Source: an uncultured Moraxellaceae bacterium (GTDB taxonomy: Bacteria; Pseudomonadota; Gammaproteobacteria; Pseudomonadales; Moraxellaceae). From it: a stretch of DNA of 33,837 bases. Both the position numbers and the translations under genes were made by a program. The notes under the pieces are model-generated. The model searched no databases. It saw only the letters and a list, made by a program, of their open reading frames with translations, and had not been told where the DNA came from. The stretch lies in the NCBI GenBank assembly GCA_964347985.1, contig CAYGBB010000001.1:1-33837 (forward strand), written 5' to 3'. Below, piece by piece: positions 2,495 to 33,837 of the stretch (the first letter of the stretch is position 1; every line of letters starts with the position of its first letter).

Positions 2495-2716
2495 GATGGC
2501 CTCACGATGCAGGTGATGTGAGGAGTTTGGGGCAGGTTGTATATTCTTAAAAATATCTTTTTGTGATTCATATATAACAAATTGTGCTTTATATGATTTT
2601 CCGGGTTGGCAGCAAATGTCCTGTTGTAGTGTCGATGAGTCATTGGGTCTGTCAGGGGAGTGCCTTTACAATCGGCCCTTGAATTATTTTCTGCCATTGA
2701 TTTGCCATGAGGCTGT

Positions 2717-3889: not shown

Positions 3890-4035
3890 GTCCTGACGGA
3901 TGGTGTCCTGCCTCGGGCAATCCGGGGCATGACACATTCGCTCATGCTCTTCTGCTTTTCCTGTCACTTGATGTCATGCCATCCCTGCGCGGGACCCTAT
4001 AGAATCCGGTGACTTGCTGTTCACGGATACTGCCC

Positions 4036-5076: not shown

Positions 5077-5166
5077 GCGGGGTTTGTTGCGCTTTTGCTG
5101 TTCCTTTCGCTGTTAATAACTGAGCACTGTCATCGCAGACGGTTGTCACACCAGAGAGCCTGATTC

Positions 5167-7942: not shown

Positions 7943-9072
7943 ATTACCCCACAGCAAATAACCAGCGCCCGACCTCGATGGTGGCTCTGCTCGCACTGTT
8001 GTCCGTATTCGGTCTTGCCGGTTGTGGTGACAAGAAATCCGAATCTACTGCAGAGGCCGTGGTGGAGGCACCACTGGAGTTGTTGCCTGCTGATGTTGCC
8101 ATCGTGTCTCGAGGCACACTGACGGGTGGATTGCCGGTGACAGGAACCCTGCAGGCGGTGCATCAGACTACCGTGCAGTCGCGAGTGGCCTCCGATATCA
8201 CTGATGTGCTGGTGCGCGAGGGTGAACGTGTGGCGAAGGGGCAGGTACTGGCCCGACTGGGCGTACAGGATCTGGACGCTCGTGTGAAGCAGTCAGAGGC
8301 ACAACTTGCCAGCGCCAGTGTGGAGGCGCAGCTGTCGCGGGCACTGGTAGACCGCAACCGGAAATTGTTTGAAAAGAATTACTTCTCTGAAAATGATTTT
8401 GCCCGTAGCCAGGGTGAGGCCGAAGCCCGTGAAGAAGCGGTTCGTGCCCAGCAAGCCATGGTGGATATTGCCCGCAAGGCGCTGAATGATGCGGTGGTGC
8501 GCGCTCCCATGAGCGGTATTGTGGCCAAGCGTTATGTCGAACCGGGTAGCAGTGTCGGCATGGATGCCCGACTTTTCGAGATTGTGGATCTGGGTGAGAT
8601 GGAGTTGCAGGTATCGGTGCCGGCACCGGAGGTACCGCGTTTGCGTGTGGGCCACCCGGTGAAATTCACTGTGGATGGTTTTGGTACGCGGCGCTTTGAC
8701 GGGCAGATTGCCCGTATCAATCCGGTTGCCGATGCCGCAACTCGCGCAATTGCCGTGTATGTGCGCGTGAAGAATTCCGATGCTGCGCTCAAGGGCGGCA
8801 TGTTTGCCCGTGGTGAAATAGCCTCAGGCTCAGCGGAGACTGCATTGATCATGCCGCTCTCTGCCGTGCGTCGTGGTGACAAGGGCTCCAGTGTATTTGT
8901 CCTGAAAAACGGCAAGCTGGAACTGCGTCTGATTACGCTGGGTGCCGTTGATGAGCGTGCAGGTCAAGCCGTTGTCAGCAGTGGTGTGGCGGATGGAGAG
9001 ACTGTGGTGGTGGCCAGCCTTAATGAACAGGCCGCCAATCGTCCCGCCAAAGTGGTTGCCCTCGGCCAGTAA
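7939..9072 (+). CDS. RND efflux periplasmic adaptor (membrane fusion protein), lipoprotein
   Basis: ATG 7939 gives a signal peptide with lipobox LAGC. The sequence has the HlyD/AcrA-type layout: coiled-coil region, APMSGIV lipoyl motif and beta-barrel. The longer ORF from 7828 runs inside the TetR gene. Confidence 0.9.
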   Translation: MNYPTANNQRPTSMVALLALLSVFGLAGCGDKKSESTAEAVVEAPLELLPADVAIVSRGTLTGGLPVTGTLQAVHQTTVQSRVASDITDVLVREGERVAKGQVLARLGVQDLDARVKQSEAQLASASVEAQLSRALVDRNRKLFEKNYFSENDFARSQGEAEAREEAVRAQQAMVDIARKALNDAVVRAPMSGIVAKRYVEPGSSVGMDARLFEIVDLGEMELQVSVPAPEVPRLRVGHPVKFTVDGFGTRRFDGQIARINPVADAATRAIAVYVRVKNSDAALKGGMFARGEIASGSAETALIMPLSAVRRGDKGSSVFVLKNGKLELRLITLGAVDERAGQAVVSSGVADGETVVVASLNEQAANRPAKVVALGQ

Positions 9073-9096
9073 GCCGCTCGACAGGAGTTAATTGCC

Positions 9097-12000: not shown

Positions 12001-12210
12001 ACAACATCAGCGATGGTGATGGGCATGGTGCCACTGGCGCTGGGCTTGGGGGAAGGTGCAGAGCAACGCGCTCCAATGGCTCATGCCATTATCGGAGGGG
12101 TGATTACCTCCACCTTGCTGACCCTGATCGTGGTGCCCGTGGTCTATACGTATCTGGATGATCTCAAGCAGTTCGCGTTTCGCTTGATCGGTGGTCGCAA
12201 GGAGCAATGA
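9097..12210 (+). CDS. RND multidrug/efflux permease (AcrB/HAE family), 1037 aa
   Basis: It starts [18 protein letters not shown] and has the 12-TM AcrB architecture with two large periplasmic loops. The conserved motif is [24 protein letters not shown] lies 9 nt upstream of the ATG. Confidence 0.95.
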
Positions 12211-20146: not shown

Positions 20147-22861
20147 TTAAAAAATTTCCAGCAGGGGGTATGTTGCCAAGGCTGTGGCGGCGCTTGAAAA
20201 GGTCGCCCAGATGTGGGCACGTATGTCTGAGTTGCCTTGTGATGCCTGCAGGATGGCTGCCATGCGATTGCTGACTCCGAGCTTGGCAAAGATGTTTTTC
20301 AGATGCCATTTCGTGGTGGAAAGCGCAACGCCGATCCGGGTACTGATTTCGTTGTTGCTGAGCCCGTTGCGCAACAGTTGCAGTACTTCCTGTTCCTTGG
20401 CGGTCAAAAGGGTGGAGTCATCCCGTAATTCTGCGTCTGCACTGAGGTTGCCCTGCAGCAAATCCTTGAACATTTCCACATAAATGGCAGGCAGGGGCAG
20501 GTTGCCGACTTCGTGACAGCGTTTGAGAAATCCTCCCAGCCCAGGTGCTTCGTCAAATACCGTGCGGTTTATGCAGGCGATGCTGTAGTGGTCGACCAGT
20601 TTTTTCAGTCGATGCAGAGCAACATTGTCGTCACCCATGAGATGGCGGGTCAGGACAAGATTGGCCTCCACGACTACGGCTCGTGAGTTGGCTCCACTTT
20701 TTTTCAGGGCGCCCAGGATTATCTCAAGGATATGTTCGGCCTCTTCAAAACGCTGGTGAGTACATAACCAGAGTGCGGTAGCCAGCCCGTAACGTTCCCA
20801 TGCCTCGTCGTAGGGGCGGGTGCGTCGCCATGTGCCATTGGCCAGCCGTTCCTGCAGTTGAGAGGCCTCAGCAATGCGGTCCATTGAGTCACGATCATTT
20901 TCTGCATGAGCCTGACGCAGTTCTTCAAAGACCACCTGACTCATGAAGCGATCATAATTCCCGAGTTGCAGAATGCGCTTGAGTTGGGAGAGCAAGCGGG
21001 CTGCCCTGGCAGTCTCGTGGCGAAGGCTTAACAGGCGCGAGAGGGTGAGATAGGTGTAGGCAATGATTTCTGTTGCGCAGGAGGAGCTGACTACCGGGAC
21101 CAGCTCTTCGAGAAGATTAAGTGCGTCTTGTGTCCGGTTCTGTTCATATCGAACGACGGCAGCAGCCGTTGCCGCATTAATCCAGGTTGGTGTATGCGGA
21201 ACGTGGCGCAGTTGCTGGTAATTGTTTTCTGCATTCTGCATGGCTTCAAACATGCGCCCGGTGTTGCGGTGGCAGAGAATCAGGATGAGGTCGGCATAAC
21301 TGCCCAGATAGTCATAACCAAGCTGCTCCAGAACGACTTTTCCCTGTTCGGCGTACTGGAGCGCATTGTTGAAGTCGCCATGCAGAAGATAGTGATACGC
21401 CAGAATAGCCAGAGAGAATGCACGAATGTCATGATTCTGGCTGGACCGTATCAGCAGGGCCTGGTCGGCATTGAGCCGGAAATCAGTGTCATGCTGGAAA
21501 AGTTGCAGCATCAGTTCCAGGAAGAGCAGTGTGGATTCGTCAAGTGTTTGCCTGTTTTCCTGTTGCGGCAGGGCATCCAGATAGTAGCGGGCCTGATTGA
21601 ACCGGCGCGACAGTATCAGTGCGCTGATGAGGGATATGCTGAGATCCCGATCCGAAAGAACAACGTCGTCGGGCAGCGGGTCCAGCCACCGGATGATGTT
21701 GCTGCAGTCGCCCTTGCGGGACCAGCGCTCACAGCTTTTGCGCAGAACTTCCAGAAAGAATCCGGGACGTTTTGTCTGCTCGGCATGGCTCAGTGCCATT
21801 TCATCTTCGCCACGGAGAAGCCACTCGCGAGCCGCTGCTTCGTGCAAAGAGGACTGACGATCCGGTTGTTCTATGGTCAGGCGGTTGCGCAGGAAGTCCT
21901 GGAACAAGGGGTGATAGCGAAACCAGCCCGGGCGTTGCTCGATCATGTGCAGGAACAGTCCCTGCGACATCAGGCGGTCAATCAGACCTGCCGAGTTTTC
22001 GCGCACTAGTACGGTATCGCACAAGGCAGCATCAAAACGCTCGAGCAATGACGAGAACAATAAAAAGTCACGCTGATCTTCTGATAATCCACGCAATACC
22101 ACGTGAGCAAAATAGTCCACCAGTTCTGGCTGCGAACCACTGAATGCCGACAGGGCACTGTCTCCGGCACGCGCACAGGCGAGCAAGGCAATTTTCACGC
22201 CTGCCATCCAGCCCTCGGTTTGTTGCAGCAGCTGGCTGATATGGCTGGCATCAGGAATCTCAATGTCCATTTTTACTGCCAACGCACTGACCTGGGCTGG
22301 CGTAAGGCGCAGGTCATGCCCATCAATCAGCAGCAGGCGGTTGGCCAGTTTGAGGCGGCTCAGGGAAAAATCCGGGTATTCACGGGTGGCAATGATGAAA
22401 TGCACTTGCGCTGGCAGGTACTCGAGCAAGGCAGAAAAGGCATCCTGGACCAGTTGGTGACGGGCTAGCTGGAAATCATCGAGCACGATGAACAGTTCAT
22501 CTTCCACTGCCTGAAAGGCCTGCAGCAGCGACTCGGCTACGCTGTGTGCAGGCAAATGGATGTCGGCGCCCAGCGGGGTATAGGACACCGTATCAAAGTT
22601 GGTGACCACTTCACGCAGGGCATCGGTCAGGCGGGTAAAGAAATGCACCGGGTCGGCATCGCGAGGGTCGAGAACCATCACGACAGTACGTCGTTCCGGT
22701 AGTTGCCATCGCCATTGCTGGAGGAGGGTGGTCTTGCCGAAGCCGGGAGGGGCAAGCAACAGCGTCAGGGCATAGTCGGCACTGCGGTCCAGCAGGCTCA
22801 GCAGTTCTGGACGAGCAATTCGGTTGCCCGGCTCGCGACCGTGGTTTTTTTTACCAGGCAT
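20147..22861 (-). CDS. Large ATP-binding LuxR-family (LAL / MalT-like) transcriptional regulator
   Basis: It has N-terminal Walker A LLLAPPGFGKTTLL, Walker B FIVLDDFQ, a long helical/TPR-like middle and a C-terminal LuxR HTH LTAKEQEVLQLLRNGLSNNEISTRIGVALSTTKWHLKNIFAKLGV. AGGGAG lies 7 nt before ATG 22861. The alternative ATG 22867 is too close to the SD. Confidence 0.9.
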   Translation of the reverse strand: MPGKKNHGREPGNRIARPELLSLLDRSADYALTLLLAPPGFGKTTLLQQWRWQLPERRTVVMVLDPRDADPVHFFTRLTDALREVVTNFDTVSYTPLGADIHLPAHSVAESLLQAFQAVEDELFIVLDDFQLARHQLVQDAFSALLEYLPAQVHFIIATREYPDFSLSRLKLANRLLLIDGHDLRLTPAQVSALAVKMDIEIPDASHISQLLQQTEGWMAGVKIALLACARAGDSALSAFSGSQPELVDYFAHVVLRGLSEDQRDFLLFSSLLERFDAALCDTVLVRENSAGLIDRLMSQGLFLHMIEQRPGWFRYHPLFQDFLRNRLTIEQPDRQSSLHEAAAREWLLRGEDEMALSHAEQTKRPGFFLEVLRKSCERWSRKGDCSNIIRWLDPLPDDVVLSDRDLSISLISALILSRRFNQARYYLDALPQQENRQTLDESTLLFLELMLQLFQHDTDFRLNADQALLIRSSQNHDIRAFSLAILAYHYLLHGDFNNALQYAEQGKVVLEQLGYDYLGSYADLILILCHRNTGRMFEAMQNAENNYQQLRHVPHTPTWINAATAAAVVRYEQNRTQDALNLLEELVPVVSSSCATEIIAYTYLTLSRLLSLRHETARAARLLSQLKRILQLGNYDRFMSQVVFEELRQAHAENDRDSMDRIAEASQLQERLANGTWRRTRPYDEAWERYGLATALWLCTHQRFEEAEHILEIILGALKKSGANSRAVVVEANLVLTRHLMGDDNVALHRLKKLVDHYSIACINRTVFDEAPGLGGFLKRCHEVGNLPLPAIYVEMFKDLLQGNLSADAELRDDSTLLTAKEQEVLQLLRNGLSNNEISTRIGVALSTTKWHLKNIFAKLGVSNRMAAILQASQGNSDIRAHIWATFSSAATALATYPLLEIF

Positions 22862-22965
22862 GGCCATCTCCCTGATTTTTATTGTTTTTTTATGGATGAA
22901 CGACTGCTTTCAGGTGATGAAAGGCTATCACGGATACCCAAACCGGTAAACATCGTGTTCCTTTC

Positions 22966-22996
22966 GCCTCCCCAAGGTCCTTTTACCCTCCCAAGG
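22966..22996 (+). promoter_or_regulatory. Two C-rich CCAAGG boxes upstream of the di-haem gene
   Basis: GCCTCCCCAAGG (22966-22977) and CCCTCCCAAGG (22986-22996) are 19 nt apart on the coding strand. A third copy, CCCCCTCCAAGG, sits on the coding strand upstream of the dioxygenase gene (33547-33536). Function is unknown. Confidence 0.35.
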
Positions 22997-23074
22997 AAGG
23001 GGGGCTGATGGATGCTGGATGTGCAAGATGCACTAGCCGGAATCCATAATGCCGGTGCCAGGAGGGTGACCATC

Positions 23075-25393
23075 ATGAAAACAACAAGAACAGGACAGGC
23101 ACTGGGGTTATTGACCCTGCTGATACTGCCCGGCTGGAGCCTTGCGGCTCCCAGCTTCCCCGAGCAGGAAAAGGTCTGTAATTACGATGCCACGCGCGAG
23201 TTCAGGCGTACGCTGTCGGCCATGTCATTTCCGACGCCAGTAGCCAGCAGCATGCTGGTGAATGGTGTCCAGGCATGGACAGCTGGTTCCACGGCTGTTC
23301 CAACGATCAAGCCGGGCGACACGATTACCTTGCGTGGTACCGGCTTTGGTCAGGGAACGGATATCGACTTCAGCAAGATCATGATTGGCAACAGCCGGGT
23401 GCTGGAAACCGATCTCAGCATGTACAAGCAGATGCTCGATATTATTGCCGAAGTAAATTACGAGCTGGATCAGAAACACAGCACCTGGCCGAAGGATGTT
23501 CTGGGCTGGACGGATACCGAAGTGAGATTCAAGGTGCCGGTACATGCCAGTGCGGGTCCGATCCGGCTTCAGGTGCAGAAGCGTGTCGGACGCATGGGCT
23601 CTCTGACCAAACCGGGGCAGGCTCACAATGTGATTGACGCACAAACCAAGCGTATCACCAGTGATTTTTATCAGCACAAATGCGATGTGGTTTCCGAGCT
23701 GGGTGCCGAGACAAAGGCCATCACACCCATCAAGGTCAATGTCAGCAATACCGGACTGACAAGCCTGGTCGCACAAGGGCGGAAGATTTTCTGGTCATAT
23801 GATTACAACATCGGGCTGGCGCACAAAATGCGCGATCTTGATTGGGCCAAGATATTTTCATACAAGACAACAGACCCGATCACGCGTCAGCCGGCTGACC
23901 CGCGCAAGCTGTTTGGTGCTTACAAGACAGTAGCAGGAGAGGTGCCGGCCGAGGCGATCAACGATGTGTATTTTGATCCCTACCCCATGCCGAATCCGAT
24001 TCCGGGCCTGCTGCTGGTAACGCCGCAAAAAACCAAGGGCAATACGAAGAACACTGGTTGGGTAGGGTACCGCACGGCGGAATCGAGCCATCCCTACACG
24101 GGCAATGGCGCGTGGTCGGGGTTCAACTGTGCATCATGTCATGGCTATCGCATCAGCTACGAGAAAACACCCGGCCAGCAGGTAACGAAGGTAGTCCCCG
24201 GGTTGCCCAATCCGGAATGGAGCATGAAGTGGACGGTGCTGGGTGACAAGGCCGGTGCAACCACGGCGACATTCAAGGGAATTGAAGGCAATGAGGCCGG
24301 GCCATCCTGGGCACCGGGTAATGCCGACATCGACAAGACTACGCTTCTGTACTACATGCCAGCCGGCGTAGGTGAACACAACATCGTGCGCGCGACGGGT
24401 GAAGGCAGTGAGACTGACAATGATTACCAGTTCTCGCCGATCACGATTCCCAATGTGACTAACTACATGCCGATCCGGCGTTCGTTGTCGCACACGGAAT
24501 CGTACGTGGGGTTTGAAGGCTCCTATATCCATTCCGAGGAACCGGATGGTGCCATGGGCTCGATGCGTGCGGATGACCTGAAGGCGCTGACTGCCTACAT
24601 GACGACGCTGGATGGTGATGACAATGATCTGCGCAATGTGGGTCTCTATCGCTGGCTGAAGTCGAAAGGCCAGCTTGCAGCACAGACCGGTAATGCATCT
24701 CTGACGGAGGGCCAGTTTGTGCAAGGGGGATGGAAATCATTCCCGGGTGTGGTCAGCTCGGTTAATCAGGGCAAAACAGCGTTTGATCGCGATTGTGCCA
24801 GCTGTCATGGTGACAAGCTGGGTGCCAATACCAATGAGCGCATGTTCCGTCTGGACCAGGTTGGTCGCTTCTTTACGCCAACGATTTACCAGAAGGATCA
24901 GCAGTCCATTCGTGCCACTTTCCTGCGCGACATGTACTGGGTGCAGTCACGTGGCCTGTTGACTGATGGCCATGTGCGCAACATGGAAGATCTAGTGAAT
25001 CCGGATCGTTGTACGGAGGGTACTGCGCTCTACAACCAGTACTACACCCTGCATGCTGCGGTGCGTCCTGCACTGGGTTCCCCTGACCAGCCTGCCGCAT
25101 GGCCGGACCTGAATCGCAAGGGTGATGTGTTCCGGGTATACAAGAATGTGGAGTACAGCACCACCGACCCGTCTACCAAGCGCAATCGTTTCATTGAGCG
25201 TCACAAGTATTTTGTGACAGTGCCGTGGGATGATGGTCACTACTACTGGGATTACCAGAAAATGCGCCGTGAGTATGGTCCTGGTGAAATGGGAACTGCA
25301 CAGCCCATTGGCATGCCAGCTGCGCCGCATCCCTGGTGTGCAGCAAATGGTGGTGACGTTGATAGCCTGACGCAGTATGTACTGACGCTGTGA
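23075..25393 (+). CDS. Secreted IPT/TIG-domain + di-haem cytochrome c protein (CCP/MauG-like), 772 aa
   Basis: GGAGGG lies 8 nt before ATG 23075. The signal peptide is MKTTRTGQALGLLTLLILPGWSLA. The IPT-like segment is IKPGDTITLRGTGFG...VRFKVPVHASAGPIRLQV. Two CxxCH motifs occur (CASCH at nt 24128-24142 and 24794-24808). The second lies in the context GKTAFDRDCASCHG and is followed by FLRDMYW..RGLLTDGHV..MEDLV, which resembles the CCP PSLRN...PY.H.G segment. Confidence 0.8.
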   Translation: MKTTRTGQALGLLTLLILPGWSLAAPSFPEQEKVCNYDATREFRRTLSAMSFPTPVASSMLVNGVQAWTAGSTAVPTIKPGDTITLRGTGFGQGTDIDFSKIMIGNSRVLETDLSMYKQMLDIIAEVNYELDQKHSTWPKDVLGWTDTEVRFKVPVHASAGPIRLQVQKRVGRMGSLTKPGQAHNVIDAQTKRITSDFYQHKCDVVSELGAETKAITPIKVNVSNTGLTSLVAQGRKIFWSYDYNIGLAHKMRDLDWAKIFSYKTTDPITRQPADPRKLFGAYKTVAGEVPAEAINDVYFDPYPMPNPIPGLLLVTPQKTKGNTKNTGWVGYRTAESSHPYTGNGAWSGFNCASCHGYRISYEKTPGQQVTKVVPGLPNPEWSMKWTVLGDKAGATTATFKGIEGNEAGPSWAPGNADIDKTTLLYYMPAGVGEHNIVRATGEGSETDNDYQFSPITIPNVTNYMPIRRSLSHTESYVGFEGSYIHSEEPDGAMGSMRADDLKALTAYMTTLDGDDNDLRNVGLYRWLKSKGQLAAQTGNASLTEGQFVQGGWKSFPGVVSSVNQGKTAFDRDCASCHGDKLGANTNERMFRLDQVGRFFTPTIYQKDQQSIRATFLRDMYWVQSRGLLTDGHVRNMEDLVNPDRCTEGTALYNQYYTLHAAVRPALGSPDQPAAWPDLNRKGDVFRVYKNVEYSTTDPSTKRNRFIERHKYFVTVPWDDGHYYWDYQKMRREYGPGEMGTAQPIGMPAAPHPWCAANGGDVDSLTQYVLTL

Positions 25394-25406
25394 GTCAACC
25401 GGGTAC

Positions 25407-25440
25407 AAAAACAACGGCCGCAATTGCGGCCGTTGTTTTT
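25407..25440. terminator. Bidirectional hairpin terminator between convergent genes
   Basis: This is the perfect palindrome AAAAACAACGGCCGC-AATT-GCGGCCGTTGTTTTT, with A/T runs on both sides. Confidence 0.85.
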
Positions 25441-25451
25441 GGCAGGATTTT

Positions 25452-27623
25452 TTACCAGGTCTTCGTTACGCCGACATGAGCACTGAGGCGTTCATCCGGC
25501 AGGCCGCCATCGGCGTTGTACATTGCCGGTGCAATGTTCTTCCGGTCAAACAGATTGCGGATATCGAAATTGAGCTGGTAATTACGTGGCTTCCAGTTCA
25601 CATGAACGTCGGTTCTGAAATGGTCTGGCGCAGCTTTTGCCCGAGTCATGCCGAGTGAGTCGGTACGGGTGCGATCGAGCAGGGCGCGCTCATTCAGCCA
25701 GGCCTCCCAGTCTGTCAGGAAGCGGTAACCCAATCCCAGGTTGAGTGTCCATGTAGGGAAGGCGTTGTATTCACTCTCGGATGTCTTGTTCCTGCTTGTC
25801 ACATAGGCGGCATTTCCCTCCAGTCGCCACGCCCCCCACTGGTGATGATGGCTGAGTTCAACGCCCTGGGCATTGTTGCGCCCTGTATTCTGGTACTGGT
25901 TTTCTCCCAGCCCAACCGGGCCGAGCACAATGCCATCCTTCCAGTGGCTGGAGAACAGAACCAGTTCGGTCGCTTGTTGCTGGCTCTTGTATTGCCAGAT
26001 CATTTCAAGGGTATCGATGGTTTCTGCCTTGATGTCCGGGTTTGGCAGCTGGTTCGAGCCGGTGCCCCCGCCATATTGCTCGGCAGCGCTGGGTGCGCGG
26101 AAGGCGTGACTGTAAAGCAGTTTACCCGTCCAGTTCTTGCTATGCGTCCAGATGAGTCCAAGACGGGGCGATGTTGCGCTGCCCACATCGCTGTAGCCAT
26201 CCCAGCGCAGCCCGTAGACGGCAGCAAATTTGCCATCATGAAAGTCACTGCGTACATGCAGCAGGGCATGATCAATGTGGCGGGAAGCGCCTTTGTACGG
26301 GGACTGAGTTTCCACATAGAGGGGGGCATTATCGGGTTGGCGCCGGACAAAGGCGTCGGTGATGGTCAGCCAGTTGCGTCCGAATCCAACGGCCCAACGG
26401 GTATTGCCGAACAGGGCATTTTGTGGACGCAGCAGCGCCTCCAGTCCACGTCTCCGGTCAGCAGTGCCCTGCGACAGTGTGTGAGGACAGTAGAGGGGGG
26501 AAACACCGGTTTGGCCCGGGCTGGTGCGGCATGGCAGGACAACATTACCGAGGGTGGTGAGTGAGTCAGGGTAGTCCTGCAGGTTGGCTATCCAGGTCTG
26601 GTCACTTTCCCACTGGAAAGCCTTTATTTCGAGTTCAAGCGAGTGTGTCAATTCTCGCTGGTGCAGTAATTGTGCTTGCCAGAAATCAGACTCCTGCCCC
26701 ATGACGTCATGCGCACCAGAAAGGCTCAGGCTGGCAAGTTGAAAACTGTTTTGCAGTGGTTGATAGAACTGGGTGCCAATGGCGGGAAACCCGCGTGAGT
26801 CATAACGGTTGCCATACAGGCTGAGTCGCCATAGACCGAAGTCTGATGGGCTTTCGCCACTTTCAACATGCAGGAAACCGGAGGCATCATGTTCATGATT
26901 GTCGCGTACACCAGTGCCTGCCTGCCCGGTGAACGCATCAGTGTATGTATAGGTAAGATCACGGTCGCCCTGATGGGTCAGGGCCAGTCCGCCATCAATG
27001 CGAATGGTTTTTGTGGCGGTATTGCCGATCAGGCTTAGCGATCCGTCTTCATGGCTGCCAGCACGTGCAGCAAGGTGCCTGCTGGCATCACCCAGGCTGC
27101 GCGTGTGGATATCCAGTACACCATGAAAGGCATCCGAACCGTAGAGGGTGCTGCCGGGCCCCCTGATCATTTCGATCCGGCCCAGCAGATCCAGCGGGAT
27201 GAAGGGCAGGTCGTAGGCAGAAGTGGCGTAGCTGTAATTGTTGAGCGGGACGCCATCCAGCAAGGTGGCGATACCGCGAGCGGATAATTCGGTGGCGTAT
27301 CCCCGCACAGCAAACATGCGTGCGCCACCCAGAGATGTGTAGGTGGATACAGCAGGCACCTGTTCCAGGGCTTCGCCCAGTGTCTGGGCGGCGCGCCGTT
27401 CCCAGTCTTCCGGTTGCAGCACAGCGACAGAGGCGGCAGCGTTGAAAACCGTTTCTTCATAGGGAGAAGCCACCGAGACGCGCACTTCCATCAGTGACTC
27501 AAGCGGCATCTCGAACAGATCCGGTTCGGCGGACATTGCTAATGGCGCAGCGCACATCCACGCCCATGCAGCAACTGAAAGAATGATTGTTTCAAGTCTG
27601 GCATGAGCCTGGTGGCGAGACAT
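25452..27623 (-). CDS. TonB-dependent outer-membrane receptor
   Basis: It has a signal peptide, then DLFEMPLESLMEVRVSVAS (the N-terminal motif of the TBDR subclass linked to YfiR/CHASE8 modules). The plug contains IEMIRGPGSTLYGSDAFHGVLDI. A long beta-barrel follows and the protein ends in an aromatic residue (..TKTW). The start overlaps the kinase stop (TGATG). Confidence 0.9.
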   Translation of the reverse strand: MSRHQAHARLETIILSVAAWAWMCAAPLAMSAEPDLFEMPLESLMEVRVSVASPYEETVFNAAASVAVLQPEDWERRAAQTLGEALEQVPAVSTYTSLGGARMFAVRGYATELSARGIATLLDGVPLNNYSYATSAYDLPFIPLDLLGRIEMIRGPGSTLYGSDAFHGVLDIHTRSLGDASRHLAARAGSHEDGSLSLIGNTATKTIRIDGGLALTHQGDRDLTYTYTDAFTGQAGTGVRDNHEHDASGFLHVESGESPSDFGLWRLSLYGNRYDSRGFPAIGTQFYQPLQNSFQLASLSLSGAHDVMGQESDFWQAQLLHQRELTHSLELEIKAFQWESDQTWIANLQDYPDSLTTLGNVVLPCRTSPGQTGVSPLYCPHTLSQGTADRRRGLEALLRPQNALFGNTRWAVGFGRNWLTITDAFVRRQPDNAPLYVETQSPYKGASRHIDHALLHVRSDFHDGKFAAVYGLRWDGYSDVGSATSPRLGLIWTHSKNWTGKLLYSHAFRAPSAAEQYGGGTGSNQLPNPDIKAETIDTLEMIWQYKSQQQATELVLFSSHWKDGIVLGPVGLGENQYQNTGRNNAQGVELSHHHQWGAWRLEGNAAYVTSRNKTSESEYNAFPTWTLNLGLGYRFLTDWEAWLNERALLDRTRTDSLGMTRAKAAPDHFRTDVHVNWKPRNYQLNFDIRNLFDRKNIAPAMYNADGGLPDERLSAHVGVTKTW

Positions 27624-29992
27624 CAGAGTCGGCTCCCGGGAACAGTGGTACCGGGCCTTGTGCCCGTGATTGGTAACCAGCGACGCAATATGTCCAGCAG
27701 TTCGGCACGCCGGAATGGTTTGCCCAACACATCATCCATGCCGGATTCCATGCAGGCGGCGCGTTCGTCGGCCAGAACACTCGCGGTCACTGCCACGATA
27801 GGAATATAGCGCTTCCGGCCAGCATTGTTATCGGCATCCCGTATGAGCCGGGTTGCGGCAAAGCCATCCATTTCCGGCATTTGGCAATCCATCAGGATCA
27901 GGTCGTATTCCTGCGTGGCCCAGGCCTCAACGGCTTCTCGACCATTGGTGACGATGTCCACGGTACATCCCAGTCCGCGCAACATGGCCTTGGCGACTTC
28001 CTGATTTGTAGGAGTGTCTTCTGCGAGCAGAATACGGAGTCCTTCCCAGGCGGGATCTGGTCGCCGGGAGGGAGACTGGCTTTCATCGACCGGGTTTGTT
28101 TCAAGGCAGCTACGCATGGCCTCATAAATCTCGTGGGTGCGTGCCGGCTTGTTCAGGTGATGTGAAAAGCCTGTGGTGCGTGCGGTGAGCAGGTCTCCGG
28201 GATTCAGCAGGGAAGTCAGCAGGATCAGACGTACACTGGAAAGTGTGGGATCTGTTTTAATCGCAAGGCCAAGGGCAATGCCATCCATTTCCGGCATTTG
28301 CATGTCGATAAGGGCAAAGTCGTATGGGAGGCCATTGTTTTGCGCGGCGCGCAGGGTTGCCAGGGCACTGGCGGCATTGCCCACCGTATCGCAGTGCATG
28401 CCCAGCATGCTGGTCTGGTGCTTGAGGATTTCCTGATTGGTTGGATGGTCGTCCACGACCAGCACTCGCAAGCCATTCAGGTCCGCAGTCATGCCTGAGG
28501 TAATCATTGTTTCCGAGGGCTGCAGCGTCAGGCTGAAGCGAAAGTGAGTGCCTTGGTCAGGGATGCTGTCGACCTGAATGCTTCCTCCCATCAGCTCTAC
28601 GAGTTGTTTCACAATCGCCAGACCGAGTCCGGTACCACCAAAGCGGCGGGCATGTGAGCTGTCCGCCTGAACAAAGGGCTTGAAAAGCTGTTGCAGGGTT
28701 GAGGCATCCATGCCGATACCGGTGTCATGCACGCCGAAAAGCAGGCGAGTGGTCTGGGCTGTGTCGACAGCAATCGACACAACCACCGCCCCCCGTTCGG
28801 TAAACTTGATGGCATTGCTCACCAGGTTGAGCAGGATCTGGCGCAGCCGGTGCGGGTCGCCCTTGACGGCCATCGGTACGTTGGAGTCAATCCGGCTGGC
28901 CAGCTCAAGGCCCTTGCGATGTGCGCGTTCTGCCAGCAACCCCACAACGTCTTCAGTGATCTGCGACGGGCTGAAGTCGATTGATTCCAGCTCCATTTTT
29001 CCCGCCTCGATTTTCGAGAAGTCGAGAATGTCATTGATGATGGTGAGCAGTGCCTCGCCGGAGTTGTGAGCGGTCTCGGCATAGCGCCGCTGCGTAGAAG
29101 AAAGGTCACTGTCCAGCAACAGTTCGGTCATGCCCAGTACCCCATTCATGGGGGTACGTATTTCATGACTCATGGTGGCCAGAAACTGTGACTTTGCACG
29201 GTTGGCTGTTTCTGCCGCATGACTGGCGTCGCGCAGTTCATGTGTGCGTTCCTCCACCAGCTGCTCCAGGCTTTCCCTGTGTCGCTTGAGTTCGGCATCA
29301 CGCAGTTCAATCTGCTCCAGCATTTCGTTGAAGCTGTCGACTAGATGACCGATTTCATCCTGACCACCAGGTTGTGCGCGCAGTGAGTAGTTCTTCTTTA
29401 ATGATACTTTTTCTGCCAGATTGGCGAGATCAACAATCGGTGTGGTCACAAACCGGCGCAATCGCATGCCGAGGATAGTGGTGATGGTCAGTGCAGCCAT
29501 TGCGAGAAGGGCCATCACTAGCAAATAGAACAGCAGGGTGCGCCAGACCGATGAAATATCGGCAGTAATATAGAGCGTGCCCAGTTGCTCGCCTTCAAGA
29601 AGGATGGGTTCGCTGACATGTACATGACCACTGAAATATTGTGTGACGCCGGTCATGTTGTGATGACAGTGGAAATCCTTGCTTTTGTGCAGCTGCAGGA
29701 TGGTGAATATCTTGCCATTTGTAACAACGCAGGCATGCATGACGGAGGGGTCTGCCTGCAGTGAGCCAAGCAAGGCATTTGTTTCTTTTACATCCATGAA
29801 TGCCAGGGCCGCTTGCACATTGTAGGCGGTGGCACGTGCAAGCGTGGAGAGTCGCGTACTGGTGTCGTCATACAGCTTGATGGACGCCACGACAGCAAAG
29901 ATCAGCCAGGCCACCAACAGGGCGGATCCCGCAGACAGAAGCAGAATGCGCATGAATTTCTGGTGCAGGGGTAGGTCACGTAAGTGTGTCAT
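27623..29992 (-). CDS. Hybrid sensor histidine kinase (CHASE8-like periplasmic domain, HAMP, HisKA, HATPase, two receiver domains)
   Basis: The periplasmic segment between two TM helices is [40 protein letters not shown]. It also has a HAMP domain, H-box [16 protein letters not shown] and N/G boxes [25 protein letters not shown]. The receiver domains are VLVVDDHP...[10 protein letters not shown] and ILLAEDTP...[10 protein letters not shown]. Confidence 0.9.
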
Positions 29993-30540
29993 TTTTCCCC
30001 CGACCGCGGTGTACGGGCTAGTTGCAGCATTCGGGCGCTGATTTTCAGGCCGGCCTGCTGTGCGGTATCGAGATTGATCATGAACTGCACCCGGTTTGAT
30101 TCCACAAACAGCTCGATCATGCCGCCATTGTGGGTGAAGTCCGGAGCATCACTTACCGTGAGGGTGGCATTATTGGCAGAAGGCTTGAGCAACTGTGCTA
30201 GCTGGCGTGCCTTGTCCCGCGTAATGAACATGACATGACAACCGGCCTGATCGTCTGCCGGTTCGAGGAGGCGTACCTGCAGCAGATGTCCCTGAGCCTC
30301 ACGGCCATGCAGTTGACGCAGCCTGTTACCAATGTCGTTCTTGCCCATGATGCAGATTTGCATGGGGGCTTCGGGCGCCAGGGCTGTAGTCGGCCATTCC
30401 ACGAACTTGGTGAAGTTGTAGATGAAGGCGGCCTTGACATCTGTTTCCGAGCTGCCTGCATTGGCCAAATCAGCCTGAAGCAACCAGAAAGCAGACGCCA
30501 AAGTCCCGAGCAGCTGCCTGCCTTTTGTCATGGTTTTCAC
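29989..30540 (-). CDS. YfiR-family (DUF4154) periplasmic protein
   Basis: It has a signal peptide ending LANA, and [16 protein letters not shown] is the family hallmark. The stop overlaps the kinase start (ATGA). The start is GTG 30540 or ATG 30531. Confidence 0.8.
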
Positions 30541-30640
30541 GGATAGGGGGGTGTTTTTACTGAGTGTAGTTGTTTTTGGGGGGGAGAAGCTGGTTTTTTA
30601 TATCAGGCTGGAAGGGTAGTGGCAGGCAGGGATGACGGGC

Positions 30641-30672
30641 AAAAAAAACGGCCGCATGTGCGGCCGTTTTTT
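30641..30672 (-). terminator. Rho-independent terminator after the dioxygenase gene
   Basis: AAAAAAAACGGCCGC-ATGT-GCGGCCGTTTTTT lies 16 nt beyond the stop at 30688. It uses the same stem as the terminators at 25407 and 33609. Confidence 0.85.
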
Positions 30673-30687
30673 ATCTTGCAGAGGGTG

Positions 30688-33435
30688 TTACTTGTCTTCG
30701 CTACGCTGGTGCTTGAAGAACACACCGTTGTCACCGAAGGCAGACACGATCAGCGGGGAGGTCAGCTCCAGTTCACCAATCTTCTTGGCACTGGCACGAC
30801 GGTCCTTTGCATACTGCGTGTTGGTGGACGGGAAGATGGAAGTCTTGATTTCCATCGAGGTGGCGTAGACGTCATACAGCTTCGAGCCGGCACCCAGGGT
30901 GGCCAGGTCGTGACGGAAGTCATGCGGGGTGGAGACAAACTTCGTCTTCACTTCAGGACGCGGCACAAAGTAGATCTGTGTCGGTGCCTTCGGTGTAGCT
31001 ACAGTGGCGCCGGCCTGTGTCACTTCTGACATGTCGTTCATGATCACGAGGGTCGGCTTGGTGCTGACGGCCGAGAACAGGATGGTGGAGCCCAGTTCGT
31101 TGGCATCGGTCGATACATAGTTCGACAGTTCGTTGGCAAAGAAGTTGTAGTTGGTACCCTGACCGGCCAGCGTGTAAAGCGCAGACACGTTTTCCGATGG
31201 CTTGCCGTTCACAAGAGCCTTCCAGGCCAGACCAGGCTGGAACTTGTTGCTTGCAGCCGGATTCTCAGTGACGGACAGACGCAGCAGGCCGTAGTCCGAG
31301 CCCTGGAACAGGCCCGTGTAGCCGTTGGCGGCAACTGGTACAAACTTCACCTTGGCCATGGCAGCATGACGGTGGATCGGCTTGACGTAGTCGGCAGGGG
31401 CGACATCAGTACGGGTCTGCACCTTCTTCCAGAGGATGGAGCTGATCAGGCCGCCAGTATCCGTTTCTGCCAGGGCAGGCATGGTGGTCTTGTACTGTGT
31501 GCGCTTGGCACCGTTCACCCAGAGGTGATCGGCCTTGGCGCTGGCATTCCAGCTTTCGTAGTCAGCGGTCATGTTCAGGCCCCAGGGCTTGAAGGCATTT
31601 TCCACTCCAGTCAGGCTGAGTGCCAGTTCCGGGTTGTGACGCTTGATCACATCCACCATGGTGGTGTTTTCGACCCAGTCGTAACCTACCTGGGTGTACA
31701 CCTCAGGACGGTAGTCCTTGGTGTAGAAGCGGTCAGTCATCAGACGACGCGAAGCGTTCAGGATAAAGATCTGGAAGGCGGTTTCACCGAAGGCGAAGCC
31801 ATCCGGACGGGTGGTTTCCGCCATGATGCCGACGATGGTATCGATCTTCTCGATATCGTTGCTGTAGATACGCTTCAGGTTGGCCAGTGTCGCCGGATCG
31901 GTCGTCAGGTCTTCGAACTTCGTGATCGGGTTCAGCTGGATCTGGCGGCGGAACTCGTTGTAACGCGGAACACCTCGCTCGCGGTCACGCAGGATGTCGG
32001 TCGTTGCCAGATCGATGTTGCCGACCAGCGGGATATCCAGGTTGCGCAGGAAGTTCGGGTAGTTGTTCAGGGTCAGCGAACCCGGGTTGGTAATACCGAA
32101 GGAGTACCACATGCGCGACGGGGTTTCCGTGTTCAGCATGTTCTCGGCCTTGCCTTCGCGGGTGTCCGGCAGGGAAACGGTCTTGACCGGAGTATTGTCA
32201 CCAATGTCGTAAACCTGGACATTGTCACGCATCAACGGGTGCATGCGGTACACGGAAACAAACTCTTCGGTCAGGGTATACGGGACGCCATAGTTGTTCG
32301 GGTTGGCCGAACCGACCAGGCCAGCAATGGCGTGATCCAGCGTGCCGCTACCGACATTACCAGCGAGGTTGGAGTCAGTACCGAGGATGGTCTTGATGAA
32401 CGAGTCGGTCTTGGACAGGTCTTCGTACCACTGGCGGGTTTCTGCCTGGTACTTGTCACGGCCTGAAGCGTTACCGATGAGGCCCCACCAGTTGGCGTAC
32501 ATGGCGCGCTCGGTGACCGGGTTGGCGATCACGGCAGGTGTCCATTCCACCGTGTGGATTTTCGCCATCAGTGCAGAGGTGACCAGACGGGCCTTGTCAT
32601 ACAGCCACTGGTCGGATGCGGTCGGGTACGTCTGCTTCAGCCGGGTGGCAATGGCATTGTGTTCCTTGGTGAAGATCTGATGCAGCATGCTCAGACCAAC
32701 CCACCAGTTGTCGTTGAAGCCGGTAACCGGCTTGCCGTTCAGGAGTTCGGTCGGCAGGGTGCCATTGGCATTGATTTTCAGCTTGCCGTCGACAAAGGAA
32801 CGGATCTTGTCGTTCTGGGCCTTGCTGCTGCCATACAGCTGCGAGCCATCCCACCAGTGGGTGTTGTGGTTGCGGTAAGTGTTGATCTTGCCGGCGTCGG
32901 CGGCTGTACGATCCCAGTCGGCCTTGGTACGACGAACATCGAGATAGCCGGTGCCGAGGGCATCACCGGAGGGCAGGGGTACCTTGATCGGGTTGGTGGA
33001 CGGGTTGGGGCCGTGATCCACCCAGTCGTGCACCATGAACTGGATCCATGACGCTGCGATGAAGTTCAGGCTGGGGGCCGGCTTGAAGGGGCCACGGGCC
33101 ATCAGGGTGTTACTGACCTCACGGGGGTTGGGGCTCAGCAGGCCGGTTGCTTCGGTTTCACCCGCAGCAACGGTCGGGTTAACGTTGCGGCCAAAACGCA
33201 CATAGACCGAGCCTTCGGCCGGGTTTGACAGGATGTTGCAGGTACCGTCTTCGGTACGTGCCGTCAGGCTGCGTGTGTCGCAGGTGATGGTGCTGTTGCG
33301 TTTAGGATAGTCCTCGAGGTCAAACATGTTTTCGTCAAGGAGATTGCCGCGCTCTACGGCCAGTGTGATAAGGCCGGCCGCGATACCCAGCGTGCCGAAC
33401 TTGGTCAGTGCTGGCCAAGTTACCCAAATTGCCAT
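30688..33435 (-). CDS. Fatty-acid alpha-dioxygenase / cyclooxygenase-type haem protein (animal haem peroxidase superfamily) fused to a C-terminal domain of about 270-290 aa of unknown function
   Basis: GAGGGA lies 7 nt before the ATG and the N-terminus carries a hydrophobic anchor. Residues about 50-620 are colinear with plant alpha-DOX. Shared motifs are RTEDGTCN, RFGRN, AASWIQFMVHDWVDH, WWDGSQLYG, FTKEHNAI, ARLVTSALMAKIHTVEWT, PYTLTEEFVSVYRMH (catalytic Tyr context), RDRERGVPRYNEFRR and GETAFQIFILNASRRL. The ORF continues without a stop for 294 more residues. Confidence 0.9.
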   Translation of the reverse strand: MAIWVTWPALTKFGTLGIAAGLITLAVERGNLLDENMFDLEDYPKRNSTITCDTRSLTARTEDGTCNILSNPAEGSVYVRFGRNVNPTVAAGETEATGLLSPNPREVSNTLMARGPFKPAPSLNFIAASWIQFMVHDWVDHGPNPSTNPIKVPLPSGDALGTGYLDVRRTKADWDRTAADAGKINTYRNHNTHWWDGSQLYGSSKAQNDKIRSFVDGKLKINANGTLPTELLNGKPVTGFNDNWWVGLSMLHQIFTKEHNAIATRLKQTYPTASDQWLYDKARLVTSALMAKIHTVEWTPAVIANPVTERAMYANWWGLIGNASGRDKYQAETRQWYEDLSKTDSFIKTILGTDSNLAGNVGSGTLDHAIAGLVGSANPNNYGVPYTLTEEFVSVYRMHPLMRDNVQVYDIGDNTPVKTVSLPDTREGKAENMLNTETPSRMWYSFGITNPGSLTLNNYPNFLRNLDIPLVGNIDLATTDILRDRERGVPRYNEFRRQIQLNPITKFEDLTTDPATLANLKRIYSNDIEKIDTIVGIMAETTRPDGFAFGETAFQIFILNASRRLMTDRFYTKDYRPEVYTQVGYDWVENTTMVDVIKRHNPELALSLTGVENAFKPWGLNMTADYESWNASAKADHLWVNGAKRTQYKTTMPALAETDTGGLISSILWKKVQTRTDVAPADYVKPIHRHAAMAKVKFVPVAANGYTGLFQGSDYGLLRLSVTENPAASNKFQPGLAWKALVNGKPSENVSALYTLAGQGTNYNFFANELSNYVSTDANELGSTILFSAVSTKPTLVIMNDMSEVTQAGATVATPKAPTQIYFVPRPEVKTKFVSTPHDFRHDLATLGAGSKLYDVYATSMEIKTSIFPSTNTQYAKDRRASAKKIGELELTSPLIVSAFGDNGVFFKHQRSEDK

Positions 33436-33516
33436 GGTGATGTCCCTCTTCCTTATTTCTTCTGGATTTTTATTGGGGTGCTGATGTCATCAGTCGCCAG
33501 CGAGTCTAGAGAGTGA

Positions 33517-33548
33517 GGGTGGGGGGTGCCCCACCCCTTGGAGGGGGG
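33517..33548 (-). promoter_or_regulatory. GC hairpin plus C-rich CCAAGG box in the dioxygenase upstream/leader region
   Basis: GGGTGGGG-GGTG-CCCCACCC forms an 8-bp all-GC/AT-perfect stem (33517-33536). It abuts the motif CCCCCTCCAAGG on the coding strand (33547-33536). Confidence 0.3.
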
Positions 33549-33608
33549 AATTCGTCTGTAAAAGTGATTATTGGTGACTTGAAAGTCTTCAAATGTGACT
33601 TGATGGAT

Positions 33609-33638
33609 AAAAAAACGGCCGCATAGGCGGCCGTTTTT
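33609..33638 (-). terminator. Rho-independent terminator after the htpX-like gene
   Basis: The sequence is AAAAAAACGGCCGC-ATAG-GCGGCCGTTTTT. On the minus strand a U run of 7 follows the stem. Confidence 0.8.
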
Positions 33639-33680
33639 CTTGTTGCAGGGTTATTTGCGCAATAACCAGAGGAAACACAC

Positions 33681-33837
33681 TTACATGATTTGCTGGTTCT
33701 GCAGTGCCTGGATACGGACTTCCAGCGGTGGATGCGACATGAACAGCTTGGCCAGGCTGAAACCTTCCAGCTTGCCGGTGGTGATGGCCAGCGCCGTCAT
33801 CTCGGCAGGCATCTGGTCGGGCAGCTCATGCTCGGCC
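33681..33837 (-). CDS. htpX: M48-family zinc protease (HtpX-like), C-terminal 52 codons; 5' end outside window
   Basis: The hand translation of the minus strand is ..[51 protein letters not shown]. The LF.SHPPL..RI.AL tail is typical of HtpX/M48 peptidases. Confidence 0.6.

Follow-up and report, generated by a model that had tools for sequence, protein, structure and literature searches.

α-Dioxygenases (α-DOXs) are expected to oxygenate fatty acids at C2, giving a 2-hydroperoxide and from it an aldehyde with one carbon fewer (Cn-1) (PMC9305512). According to a 2022 review, the characterised prokaryotic members are three soluble cyanobacterial enzymes only, studied as biocatalysts (PMC9305512); those of Proteobacteria figure as database sequences only, in a phylogeny built with the N- and C-terminal extensions trimmed (PMC8720084). 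Pseudomonas aeruginosa has periplasmic di-haem enzymes that produce extracellular oxylipins, and these are reported to affect biofilm formation, motility and virulence (PMC5155153). Here we analyse a locus at positions 20147-33435 of a 33,837-nucleotide (nt) stretch of DNA from an uncultured Moraxellaceae bacterium, hereafter the window. It encodes a 915-residue protein with an α-DOX-type domain (DOX), a large ATP-binding LuxR/MalT-like (LAL) regulator, an exported di-haem c-type cytochrome with an IPT/TIG domain, and a trio made up of a YfiR-like protein, a hybrid histidine kinase and a TonB-dependent receptor (TBDR). The nearest relatives of all six genes are found in uncultured Moraxellaceae.

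The regulatory proteins also have described counterparts. MalT multimerises under the action of ATP and its inducer, and then binds cooperatively to repeated boxes (PMC4381067). YfiBNR provides the analogy for the trio (PMC4887326). An earlier reading of the window (the original prediction) had joined all six genes into one system that makes or senses an oxidised lipid. All six of its open reading frames (ORFs) are confirmed, and its domain calls on the six proteins are upheld by Pfam and NCBIfam, save the cytochrome c peroxidase (CCP)/MauG class of the di-haem protein. What it said of the P. aeruginosa enzymes PA2077/PA2078 is correct (PMC5155153), its application to the window protein being not established.

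We conclude that the LAL regulator, the fusion of an α-DOX with a domain from an exported family and, in some lineages, the IPT/di-haem cytochrome constitute a real conserved system, undescribed as far as we found, which probably acts on lipids in the cell envelope. The reading we favour, with a probability of roughly 60%, is a regulon in which LAL controls the DOX and di-haem genes, as a conserved three-gene unit, with the trio standing outside it. We infer the topology of this system, its substrate and products, and the roles of the C-terminal domain of DOX and of the cytochrome.

A bacterial α-dioxygenase domain with a fused partner

The 915-residue protein matches An_peroxidase (PF03098) over residues 60-604 (Pfam; 355.6 bits, E=5.6e-106). 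In a PDB sequence search, its residues 46-619 match rice α-DOX (4kvj, E=2.7e-113) and Arabidopsis α-DOX (4hhr, 1.4e-104), compared with about 1e-27 for peroxinectin and lactoperoxidase and about 1e-12 for cyclooxygenase-2 (COX-2). The original prediction, which had named α-dioxygenases and cyclooxygenases together, can thus be narrowed: the protein is of the α-DOX type and much nearer to the plant enzymes than to COX. The motifs WIQFMVHDW and VYRMH hold the distal histidine, the catalytic tyrosine and the proximal histidine. The alignment spans the position mutated in the Y379F structure 4kvl, and Tyr396 falls on the mutated site, which identifies it as the catalytic position. The ASRRL and AKIHT motifs align with R558/R559/H311 of rice α-DOX, and we take R563/R564 and H294 to be the counterparts of these carboxylate-binding residues. 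H136 (distal), H294, Y396, H399 (proximal) and R563/R564 are invariant in 14 homologues of 63-92% identity. Because the protein is nearest to plant α-DOX and its catalytic residues are invariant, its catalytic domain is, judged by sequence, a bona fide α-DOX-type domain.

A hydrophobic N-terminal helix, followed by an acidic stretch, is conserved in the DOX clade, and a cysteine pair (C52/C66) is invariant and specific to the clade. Together with the export signals of relatives, these features suggest that DOX faces the periplasm. A literature search of alkane-degrader proteomics returned nothing relevant on the DOX family of the window.

The remainder of the protein, from about residue 620 to residue 915 (the C-domain), is strongly conserved, with no match in Pfam and no PDB sequence match. 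Nearly all full-length entries among the top 120 DOX homologues have the same fusion architecture, with lengths of 911-923 residues. An exhaustive phmmer search places the C-domain in a family of 1,179 representative clusters (E<1e-3), most of them stand-alone proteins of 300-350 residues that carry no Pfam annotation and mostly have Sec or lipoprotein signal peptides. Other fusions were also seen: in P0398 (1,356 residues) the C-domain is C-terminal, joined through a long linker to An_peroxidase, and in P0468 (607 residues) and P0406 (1,546 residues) its partners are DUF2515 and a eukaryote-like PTHB1 protein, of which the PTHB1 case may be a gene-model artefact.

In a metagenome-assembled genome of Bacteriovoracaceae (L071:9869-13090), DOX and the C-domain are adjacent separate ORFs with a double stop codon between them. 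The DOX ORF starts with a lipobox-like signal and the C-domain ORF has its own signal peptide; the arrangement is a natural fission of the fusion protein. This pattern of fusion and fission ties the DOX and C-domains functionally.

An AlphaFold2 model of the C-domain (pLDDT 73.5) was compared with known structures using Foldseek. The top match, a weak one, is the 33-kDa catalase-related mini-catalase 3e4y (E=0.011, probability 0.82, TM 0.36), and coral allene oxide synthase (AOS; 1u5u) stands at rank 8 (TM 0.34). Across 58 members of the C-domain family, three residues (R109, K129 and D292) never vary and two histidines, H78 and H299, are kept in at least 90%; no tyrosine reaches that level, and a conserved proximal tyrosine ligand is thus lacking. 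A catalase-related C-domain, prompted by motifs noticed in the sequence and by the two structural matches, was not confirmed. Neither Pfam nor PDB profile searches support the relation, and hhalign against human catalase (an approximate sequence) returned a probability of 0.15-0.21%. We retain a catalase-like C-domain as a doubtful lead.

A dedicated LAL regulator and a shared palindrome

The LAL protein has a GerE helix-turn-helix (HTH) at residues 820-873 and AAA_22/AAA_16 at residues 21-154 (Pfam). It matches the NCBIfam MalT model over residues 3-514 (262.5 bits, E=7e-78), and is not a MalT orthologue, because this score is under the equivalog cut-off of 537. No receiver domain was found in LAL by Pfam, and the locus encodes no histidine phosphotransfer (Hpt) protein or response regulator that would link the kinase to it. 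AlkS of alkane degraders is another LAL/STAND regulator; a plasmid search for named LAL relatives of this kind returned only generic LuxR-family matches of 25-31% identity. Over its full length, the window LAL is 34-49% identical to the LAL proteins encoded beside di-haem and ceramidase genes, and these form one subfamily.

To place the locus among genomes, an alignment of DOX was used to scan one genome per species, and the 80 best-scoring loci of at least 596 were searched by tblastn with the window proteins. In a subset of 52 well-flanked loci, the sequence extends for at least 3 kb upstream of DOX and at least 6 kb downstream of it. LAL adjoins DOX in 40 of these 52, in 30 as the tandem upstream gene, in 8 divergently and in 2 downstream, the last being the arrangement in the window. 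The adjacency spans several gammaproteobacterial families, and the view that the regulator is dedicated to DOX is borne out. A di-haem gene lies in the flank in 6 of the 52 loci and in 9 of all 80 (five Moraxellaceae, four Alcanivoracaceae), and in all nine it is divergent from LAL. The conserved synteny on which the original prediction had been made to depend is therefore present for DOX, LAL and the di-haem gene and absent for the trio.

The di-haem gene is also divergent from LAL where no DOX is near, in Isoalcanivorax (L085), and it is likewise paired with LAL in locus L088, described below. Di-haem genes without LAL occur in Thalassolituus, Solimonas and Aquabacterium.

Clustering of the ORFs in the 80 loci revealed no other neighbour common across families, apart from flavin/Baeyer-Villiger monooxygenase (FMO/BVMO) and type II secretion genes. 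A flavin monooxygenase of the AlmA/BVMO type recurs beside LAL-DOX in Alcanivoracaceae and Marinobacter (L031:12877-14460, L039, L077, L035 and L054); a regular-expression scan of the 350 nt upstream of its gene found no palindrome of the kind described next. In the Pseudomonas alcaligenes group (L010-L030), LAL-DOX is flanked by type II secretion genes (GspC/D/E/F-like), which may be lineage-specific synteny or a hint of a secreted partner protein. The window is 94% identical in nucleotide sequence to the relative L001 over 30688-33837, on the DOX side, and only 82% over 22536-25393, on the di-haem/LAL side, a mosaic pattern that suggests recombination inside the cluster.

An inverted repeat, CCCC(C)TCC(C)-N2-5-GG(G)AGGGG(G), lies upstream of DOX genes across genera. 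It was found in about 55 of the 65 upstream regions examined, at -82 to -151 from the DOX ATG and most often near -109. As a regular expression it has 78 matches in the 1.43 Mb of loci, 41 of them within 350 nt upstream of a DOX. The window contains two matches only, at 33530-33548 in the DOX promoter and at 22986-23004 in the promoter region between di-haem and LAL. As a count, two is not significant (about 1.4 in shuffled sequence); it is position and conservation that carry weight. The palindrome also precedes the di-haem gene wherever LAL adjoins it, in L001-3, L006, L008, L031/59, L039, L077, L085 and L088, and it is absent upstream of the di-haem gene in L084, a locus that lacks LAL. Of 38 loci in which LAL adjoins DOX, 35 have the palindrome, compared with 3 of 8 without this adjacency (Fisher p=0.002, uncorrected for phylogeny). 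From these observations we infer that LAL uses the palindrome as its operator, and that it would control DOX and di-haem as one regulon.

The sequence of the arms is itself conserved across families, and several sites are asymmetric (CCCTAC...GGAGGG) in a way that would break a hairpin. A known or structured RNA was considered and rejected: Rfam has no match at the palindromes and only sub-threshold matches on the terminator hairpins, and folding of the window RNA at the palindromes is unremarkable (z-scores -1.2 and -0.9), the minimum-free-energy fold using a different hairpin. We take the G-rich arm of the palindrome to resemble a MalT box.

On the upstream side of the DOX palindrome, and close to it (window about 33574-33602, minus strand), is a direct repeat, CAAGTCAC-N13-CAAGTCAC, which may be the site of a second regulator. 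AAGTCAC motifs related to it are found in loci of other Moraxellaceae (L001, L003, L006).

The di-haem cytochrome and an accessory trio

The di-haem ORF of 793 residues encodes a signal peptide and two CxxCH motifs, CASCH in both cases, and matches Cytochrom_C, Cytochrome_CBB3 and, weakly, IPT/TIG in Pfam. Translation likely starts at the ATG at 23075 (MKTTRTG..., then the signal peptide) rather than at 23012, because homologues are 770-772 residues long and AGGAGG precedes the ATG at 23075. The family has about 285 detectable members, and C352/C355/H356, C574/C577/H578 and the histidine of a DGHVRN motif are invariant in 35 homologues.

Membership of the CCP/MauG/RoxA group is unsupported by Pfam, NCBIfam, PDB sequences or Foldseek. 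CCP_MauG (PF03150) has no match in the window protein and is sub-threshold in 14 of 35 relatives (best E=0.0039); the NCBIfam model CytoC_perox (NF040606) gives 23.5 bits against a cut-off of 150, with about 37 profile positions covered; and no PDB sequence match to a solved CCP, MauG or RoxA was obtained, either by single-sequence phmmer or with a family profile. An AlphaFold2 model of the protein (pLDDT 75.8, with a poorly predicted region around residues 445-495) places the first CxxCH in a β-rich region. The top 50 Foldseek matches to this model are all Ig-like and confined to the N-terminal domain, with no CCP, MauG or RoxA fold among them. The claim that the locus brings together both known classes of haem fatty-acid oxygenase is thus unproven.

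The trio is of a recognisable type. Its YfiR-like protein matches PF13689 (DUF4154) with 158 bits and the TOL_0243 family (NF053591) with 145 bits, above the cut-off of 125. The kinase, built as CHASE8-HAMP-HisKA-HATPase-2xREC, scores 155.7 bits with HK_near_YfiR_like (NF053592), below the cut-off of 194, and the TBDR, with a Plug and a TonB barrel, scores 100.2 bits with NF053590, below the cut-off of 645. The TBDR family is small, with 129 proteins. As originally described, the three genes are translationally coupled, through ATGA (yfiR-like/kinase) and TGATG (kinase/TBDR) overlaps. By analogy with YfiBNR, the CHASE8 kinase is probably kept repressed by the YfiR-like protein until this repression is lifted by way of the outer-membrane partner. 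A literature search on DUF4154 trios returned nothing relevant.

None of the 80 genome loci contains the trio, including those with DOX, LAL and di-haem together. DNA homology to the trio-less relatives L001-L003 breaks at 25393/25394 and resumes at 30688, where the convergent di-haem and DOX genes have their stop codons, and the 5.3-kb trio segment stands where these relatives have an unrelated spacer of 0.58-0.72 kb. In L001 this spacer carries a (GCTGATT)n microsatellite of about 11 units (L001:3690-3765). The same order of DUF4154, CHASE8 kinase and TBDR genes occurs in L081 and L082, from other Moraxellaceae and in housekeeping-gene contexts, and in L091. The trio promoter lacks the palindrome, by regular-expression search of the window, and the trio is flanked by terminators on both sides. 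A strong intrinsic terminator directly after the DOX stop codon makes DOX and the trio, as the original prediction had it, separate transcription units on the same strand; read-through of the trio from DOX was rejected on the same evidence.

A hairpin, ACGGCCGC-N4-GCGGCCGT, has three copies in the window (zero expected by chance). The first and the second (30648-30667) bracket the trio, as terminators of di-haem/TBDR and of DOX, and with the third copy they set off the trio and the DOX gene as modules of their own; individual copies are shared by L090 and L001. These hairpins may be terminators resembling repetitive extragenic palindromic (REP) elements and act as recombination points for gain and loss of the cassette.

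A metagenome scan queried with the TBDR returned no close relatives. Metagenome contigs L091-L093 carry a diverged trio (YfiR-like 60%, kinase 74% and TBDR 67% identity) followed by a convergent di-haem gene that is 90% identical to that of the window, and contig L090, which carries a TBDR of 85% identity, ends with the same hairpin as in the window. The idea of a one-off insertion unique to the window genome is overturned by these contigs. On the sequence comparisons, the trio is a lineage-restricted accessory cassette at this site and not a conserved part of the system. The original prediction had made it an envelope-spanning sensory module of the system, a role to which its absence from the 80 loci, its lack of the palindrome, its own terminators and its stand-alone occurrence elsewhere run counter.

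Table 1. Features of the locus in the window (positions in nt; strand as + or -, a full stop where none applies)
Feature	Position	Strand	Remarks
LAL (large ATP-binding LuxR/MalT-like STAND) regulator	20147..22867	-	906 residues; GerE + STAND NTPase
Palindrome ACCCTCCC-AAGG-AAGGGGGGC	22986..23006	.	LAL/di-haem divergent promoter, -89 from ATG 23075; putative LAL operator
Exported IPT/TIG + di-haem c-type cytochrome	23075..25393	+	about 772 residues; uncharacterised family; ORF opens 23012 (793 residues)
Hairpin ACGGCCGC-AATT-GCGGCCGT + flanking A/T runs	25414..25433	.	predicted bidirectional terminator, di-haem/TBDR; left trio boundary
TonB-dependent receptor (TBDR)	25452..27623	-	723 residues; third trio gene
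Hybrid histidine kinase CHASE8-HAMP-HisKA-HATPase-REC-REC	27623..29992	-	789 residues; second trio gene
YfiR-like periplasmic protein (DUF4154)	29989..30540	-	183 residues; first trio gene
Predicted intrinsic terminator of DOX gene AAAAACGGCCGC-acat-GCGGCCGTTTTTTTT	30642..30672	-	right trio boundary
DOX ORF, whole	30688-33435	-	915 residues; An_peroxidase protein
DOX C-domain (residues about 620-915, about 300 residues)	30691..31578	-	large unannotated family, mostly stand-alone exported
DOX signal-anchor helix + α-dioxygenase catalytic domain (residues 1-619)	31579..33435	-	PF03098
Palindrome CCCCCCTCC-AAGG-GGTGGGG	33530..33548	.	-111 from DOX ATG; putative LAL operator
Third ACGGCCGC-N4-GCGGCCGT hairpin, then T-run	33615..33634	.	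upstream of DOX promoter

Elsewhere in the window are genes not linked to the finding: alpha/beta hydrolases, a nitronate monooxygenase and a thioesterase (1880-6191), a second TetR/CecR regulator (6216-6866), and a TetR regulator with a resistance-nodulation-division (RND) efflux pump consisting of an HlyD-type adaptor and an AcrB-type transporter (7025-12210).

Envelope lipids, competing readings and described systems

The genomic context in relatives bears on the substrate. Fluviicoccus keumensis, of a sister genus, has a cluster of LAL, glycoside hydrolase family 5 (GH5), neutral ceramidase and di-haem cytochrome genes (L088:663-10316). Its LAL is 42% identical to that of the window and belongs to the same subfamily; the best PDB relatives of its GH5 protein are endoglycoceramidases (E=1e-11), and its ceramidase matches 2zws (E=1e-110). 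The cluster contains two palindromes, one in the GH5/ceramidase intergenic region and one about 100 nt upstream of the di-haem gene, the latter identical to the di-haem palindrome of the window. It looks like a candidate sphingolipid-degradation regulon. In L003, a 92% relative of the window, a ceramidase gene lies about 9 kb from DOX; a glutathione peroxidase gene is also nearby. This context suggests that complex lipids are processed outside the cytoplasm and release fatty acids, which may serve catabolism or signalling.

In the mechanism we propose, LAL would sense a probably lipid-derived inducer, multimerise with ATP as MalT does, and then bind CCCCTCC-N2-5-GGAGGGG upstream of the DOX fusion gene and of the divergent IPT/di-haem gene. 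DOX would be a haem-b fatty-acid α-dioxygenase, held in the inner membrane by its N-terminal signal-anchor helix and facing the periplasm, in which a Tyr396 radical would take a hydrogen from C2 of a free fatty acid bound by Arg563, Arg564 and His294. Addition of O2 would give a 2-hydroperoxy fatty acid, which would then yield a Cn-1 aldehyde and CO2 or be reduced to the 2-hydroxy acid. The C-domain and the periplasmic di-haem cytochrome might deliver the substrate or process the hydroperoxide product. The lipids on which the whole system acts would be exogenous or those of the envelope, in organisms that use hydrocarbons and lipids for growth. The trio between DOX and di-haem would be an autonomous envelope-signalling cassette of the YfiBNR type, present at the site only in one Moraxellaceae sub-lineage.

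The system envisaged originally was larger: DOX and the di-haem protein would make an oxylipin signal, the TBDR would import it or the YfiR-like protein and CHASE8 kinase would sense it, and LAL would close the loop. The genes are indeed physically packed in the window, all products are envelope proteins, periplasmic di-haem enzymes of P. aeruginosa make extracellular oxylipins (PMC5155153), and in at least one diverged lineage (L091-L093), as probably also in L090, the trio has as its neighbour a di-haem gene that is 90% identical. We nevertheless consider an integrated system clearly unlikely, given that the trio is missing from all 80 loci, that its site is a 0.6-kb spacer in the nearest relatives, and that it recurs in the same order amid unrelated housekeeping genes; its terminators, its palindrome-free promoter, the lack of a receiver domain in LAL and the lack of an Hpt protein or response regulator in the cluster point the same way, and the synteny may be inherited, since the lineages with this adjacency are closely related. 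A role in peroxide defence, with the An_peroxidase protein acting mainly as a periplasmic peroxidase and the di-haem protein as electron donor or second peroxidase in the detoxification of H2O2 or lipid hydroperoxides, would suit the peroxidase-cyclooxygenase superfamily to which DOX belongs, the weak CCP_MauG-like signals that some di-haem relatives show near a haem motif, the nearby glutathione peroxidase gene in L003 and the weak fold match of the C-domain to a catalase-related peroxidase. This role is very improbable in view of the E values (2.7e-113 for α-DOX versus about 1e-27 for peroxinectin and lactoperoxidase) and of the retained α-DOX-specific tyrosine and carboxylate-binding Arg-Arg/His set. 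A ligand-sensing LAL in place of OxyR- or PerR-type control also fits a stress defence poorly, and plant α-DOXs are not known to have more than negligible peroxidase activity.

There might also be no regulon at all, the palindrome being a terminator, an attenuator or a REP-like repeat, the LAL adjacency inherited, and DOX and di-haem functionally unrelated. A T-run after the palindrome in several loci and the position of the element just past the LAL stop codon in tandem LAL>DOX loci would agree with this, as would the mirrored, compensatory-looking changes in the arms in L046, L058 and L050, and the window does hold a second family of hairpins whose repeated use as terminators is clear. Yet it is the arm sequence and not merely the pairing that is conserved across families, with asymmetric sites that would break a hairpin, and the window RNA prefers a different hairpin. 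The palindrome is, moreover, not simply the terminator of LAL, because it is present where LAL is divergent or where another gene lies upstream, as in the window. It stands at the promoters of two gene families and tracks the presence of LAL, and LAL-DOX adjacency spans several families without other shared neighbours, all of which leaves an absence of any regulon highly unlikely.

Several points also weigh against the LAL-controlled regulon that we favour. Relatives of the query are over-represented among the 80 loci. The di-haem gene accompanies DOX in a minority of loci, and is also found alone (L084) or with other regulators (L086, L087), so the partnership of DOX and di-haem is facultative. 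The periplasmic orientation of the haem-b DOX is deduced from its helix, its cysteine pair and the export signals of relatives, and the binding of LAL to the palindrome from their co-occurrence. Because a T-run follows the palindrome in several loci, the element could double as a terminator or attenuator. Recurrence of the trio beside the 90%-identical di-haem gene in other metagenomic lineages makes a local functional link between the two conceivable in that sub-clade; as these lineages are close relatives, the adjacency may be inherited and says little on function.

The locus defines a widespread proteobacterial form of α-DOX with a built-in partner domain from a large unannotated family, and its dedicated, ligand-sensing regulator and recognisable putative operator offer an experimental handle on the inducer and the regulon. 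Some lineages add a novel di-haem cytochrome and ceramide-releasing enzymes. The DOX system is found in many hydrocarbon- and lipid-degrading Gammaproteobacteria, among them Alcanivorax, Marinobacter, Oleispira, the Pseudomonas alcaligenes group and Moraxellaceae. It could therefore bring to light a pathway in the envelope that oxidises fatty acids or sphingolipids, with relevance for aldehyde biocatalysis and for the turnover of oil and lipids. The "sensor" trio should not be counted among the components of the system.

A bolder proposal, which we rate as rather unlikely, is that the C-domain is a new haem- or cofactor-binding domain, distantly catalase-like and His-ligated, that converts hydroperoxides and forms with DOX and the IPT/di-haem cytochrome a three-haem periplasmic oxylipin pathway. 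On this proposal, the 915-residue protein would be the bacterial equivalent of the fungal fusions of a dioxygenase with a cytochrome P450 (DOX-CYP) and of the coral fusions of catalase and lipoxygenase (LOX). Fatty acids derived from hosts, algae or sphingolipids would be turned into previously unknown bacterial oxylipins, and the LAL inducer would be the lipid substrate or one of the products of the pathway. The stand-alone proteins related to the C-domain, of which there are more than 1,100, would make up a so far unrecognised family of exported enzymes acting on lipid hydroperoxides.

Each part of the locus can be set against described systems. The trio shares with YfiBNR and HmsCDE a YfiR-like periplasmic protein, a CHASE8 membrane sensor and an outer-membrane partner (PMC4887326). 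Its output is a hybrid histidine kinase (HisKA/HATPase/2xREC) instead of a GGDEF diguanylate cyclase, and its outer-membrane partner a TBDR instead of the OmpA-like lipoprotein YfiB. The NCBIfam neighbourhood of TOL_0243 YfiR-like protein, kinase and TOL_0244 TBDR already models this type of trio, with the window kinase and TBDR below its cut-offs. The cytochrome resembles the oleate diol synthase enzymes PA2077/PA2078 of P. aeruginosa, members of the di-haem cytochrome c peroxidase subfamily, in being a periplasmic c-type di-haem protein in a lipid-oxidation context (PMC5155153), and departs from them in falling below the CCP_MauG and CytoC_perox thresholds and in its N-terminal IPT/Ig-like domain. 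LAL is built like MalT, with an N-terminal STAND NTPase, a helical-repeat sensor and a C-terminal LuxR HTH, whereas the proposed box is a CCCCTCC/GGAGGGG inverted repeat and that of MalT consists of repeated G-rich boxes.

As in the fungal DOX-CYP linoleate diol synthases (Ppo) and the coral and cyanobacterial fusions of catalase-related AOS and lipoxygenase, a dioxygenase is fused to, or encoded beside, a second domain that could act on its hydroperoxide product, and the fission in L071 mirrors this fused-or-adjacent logic; the partner domain in the window is, however, neither a P450 nor demonstrably a catalase, and has no conserved tyrosine ligand. DOX itself resembles the α-DOXs of plants (rice, Arabidopsis) and cyanobacteria (CsDOX, CalDOX, LepDOX), which have the same catalytic domain with the distal histidine, the tyrosine, the proximal histidine and the Arg-Arg/His set. 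To this shared domain the window DOX adds an N-terminal anchor helix, a clade-specific cysteine pair and a fused C-domain of about 300 residues, and it is predicted to be periplasmic, with a dedicated LAL regulator and a putative operator of its own.

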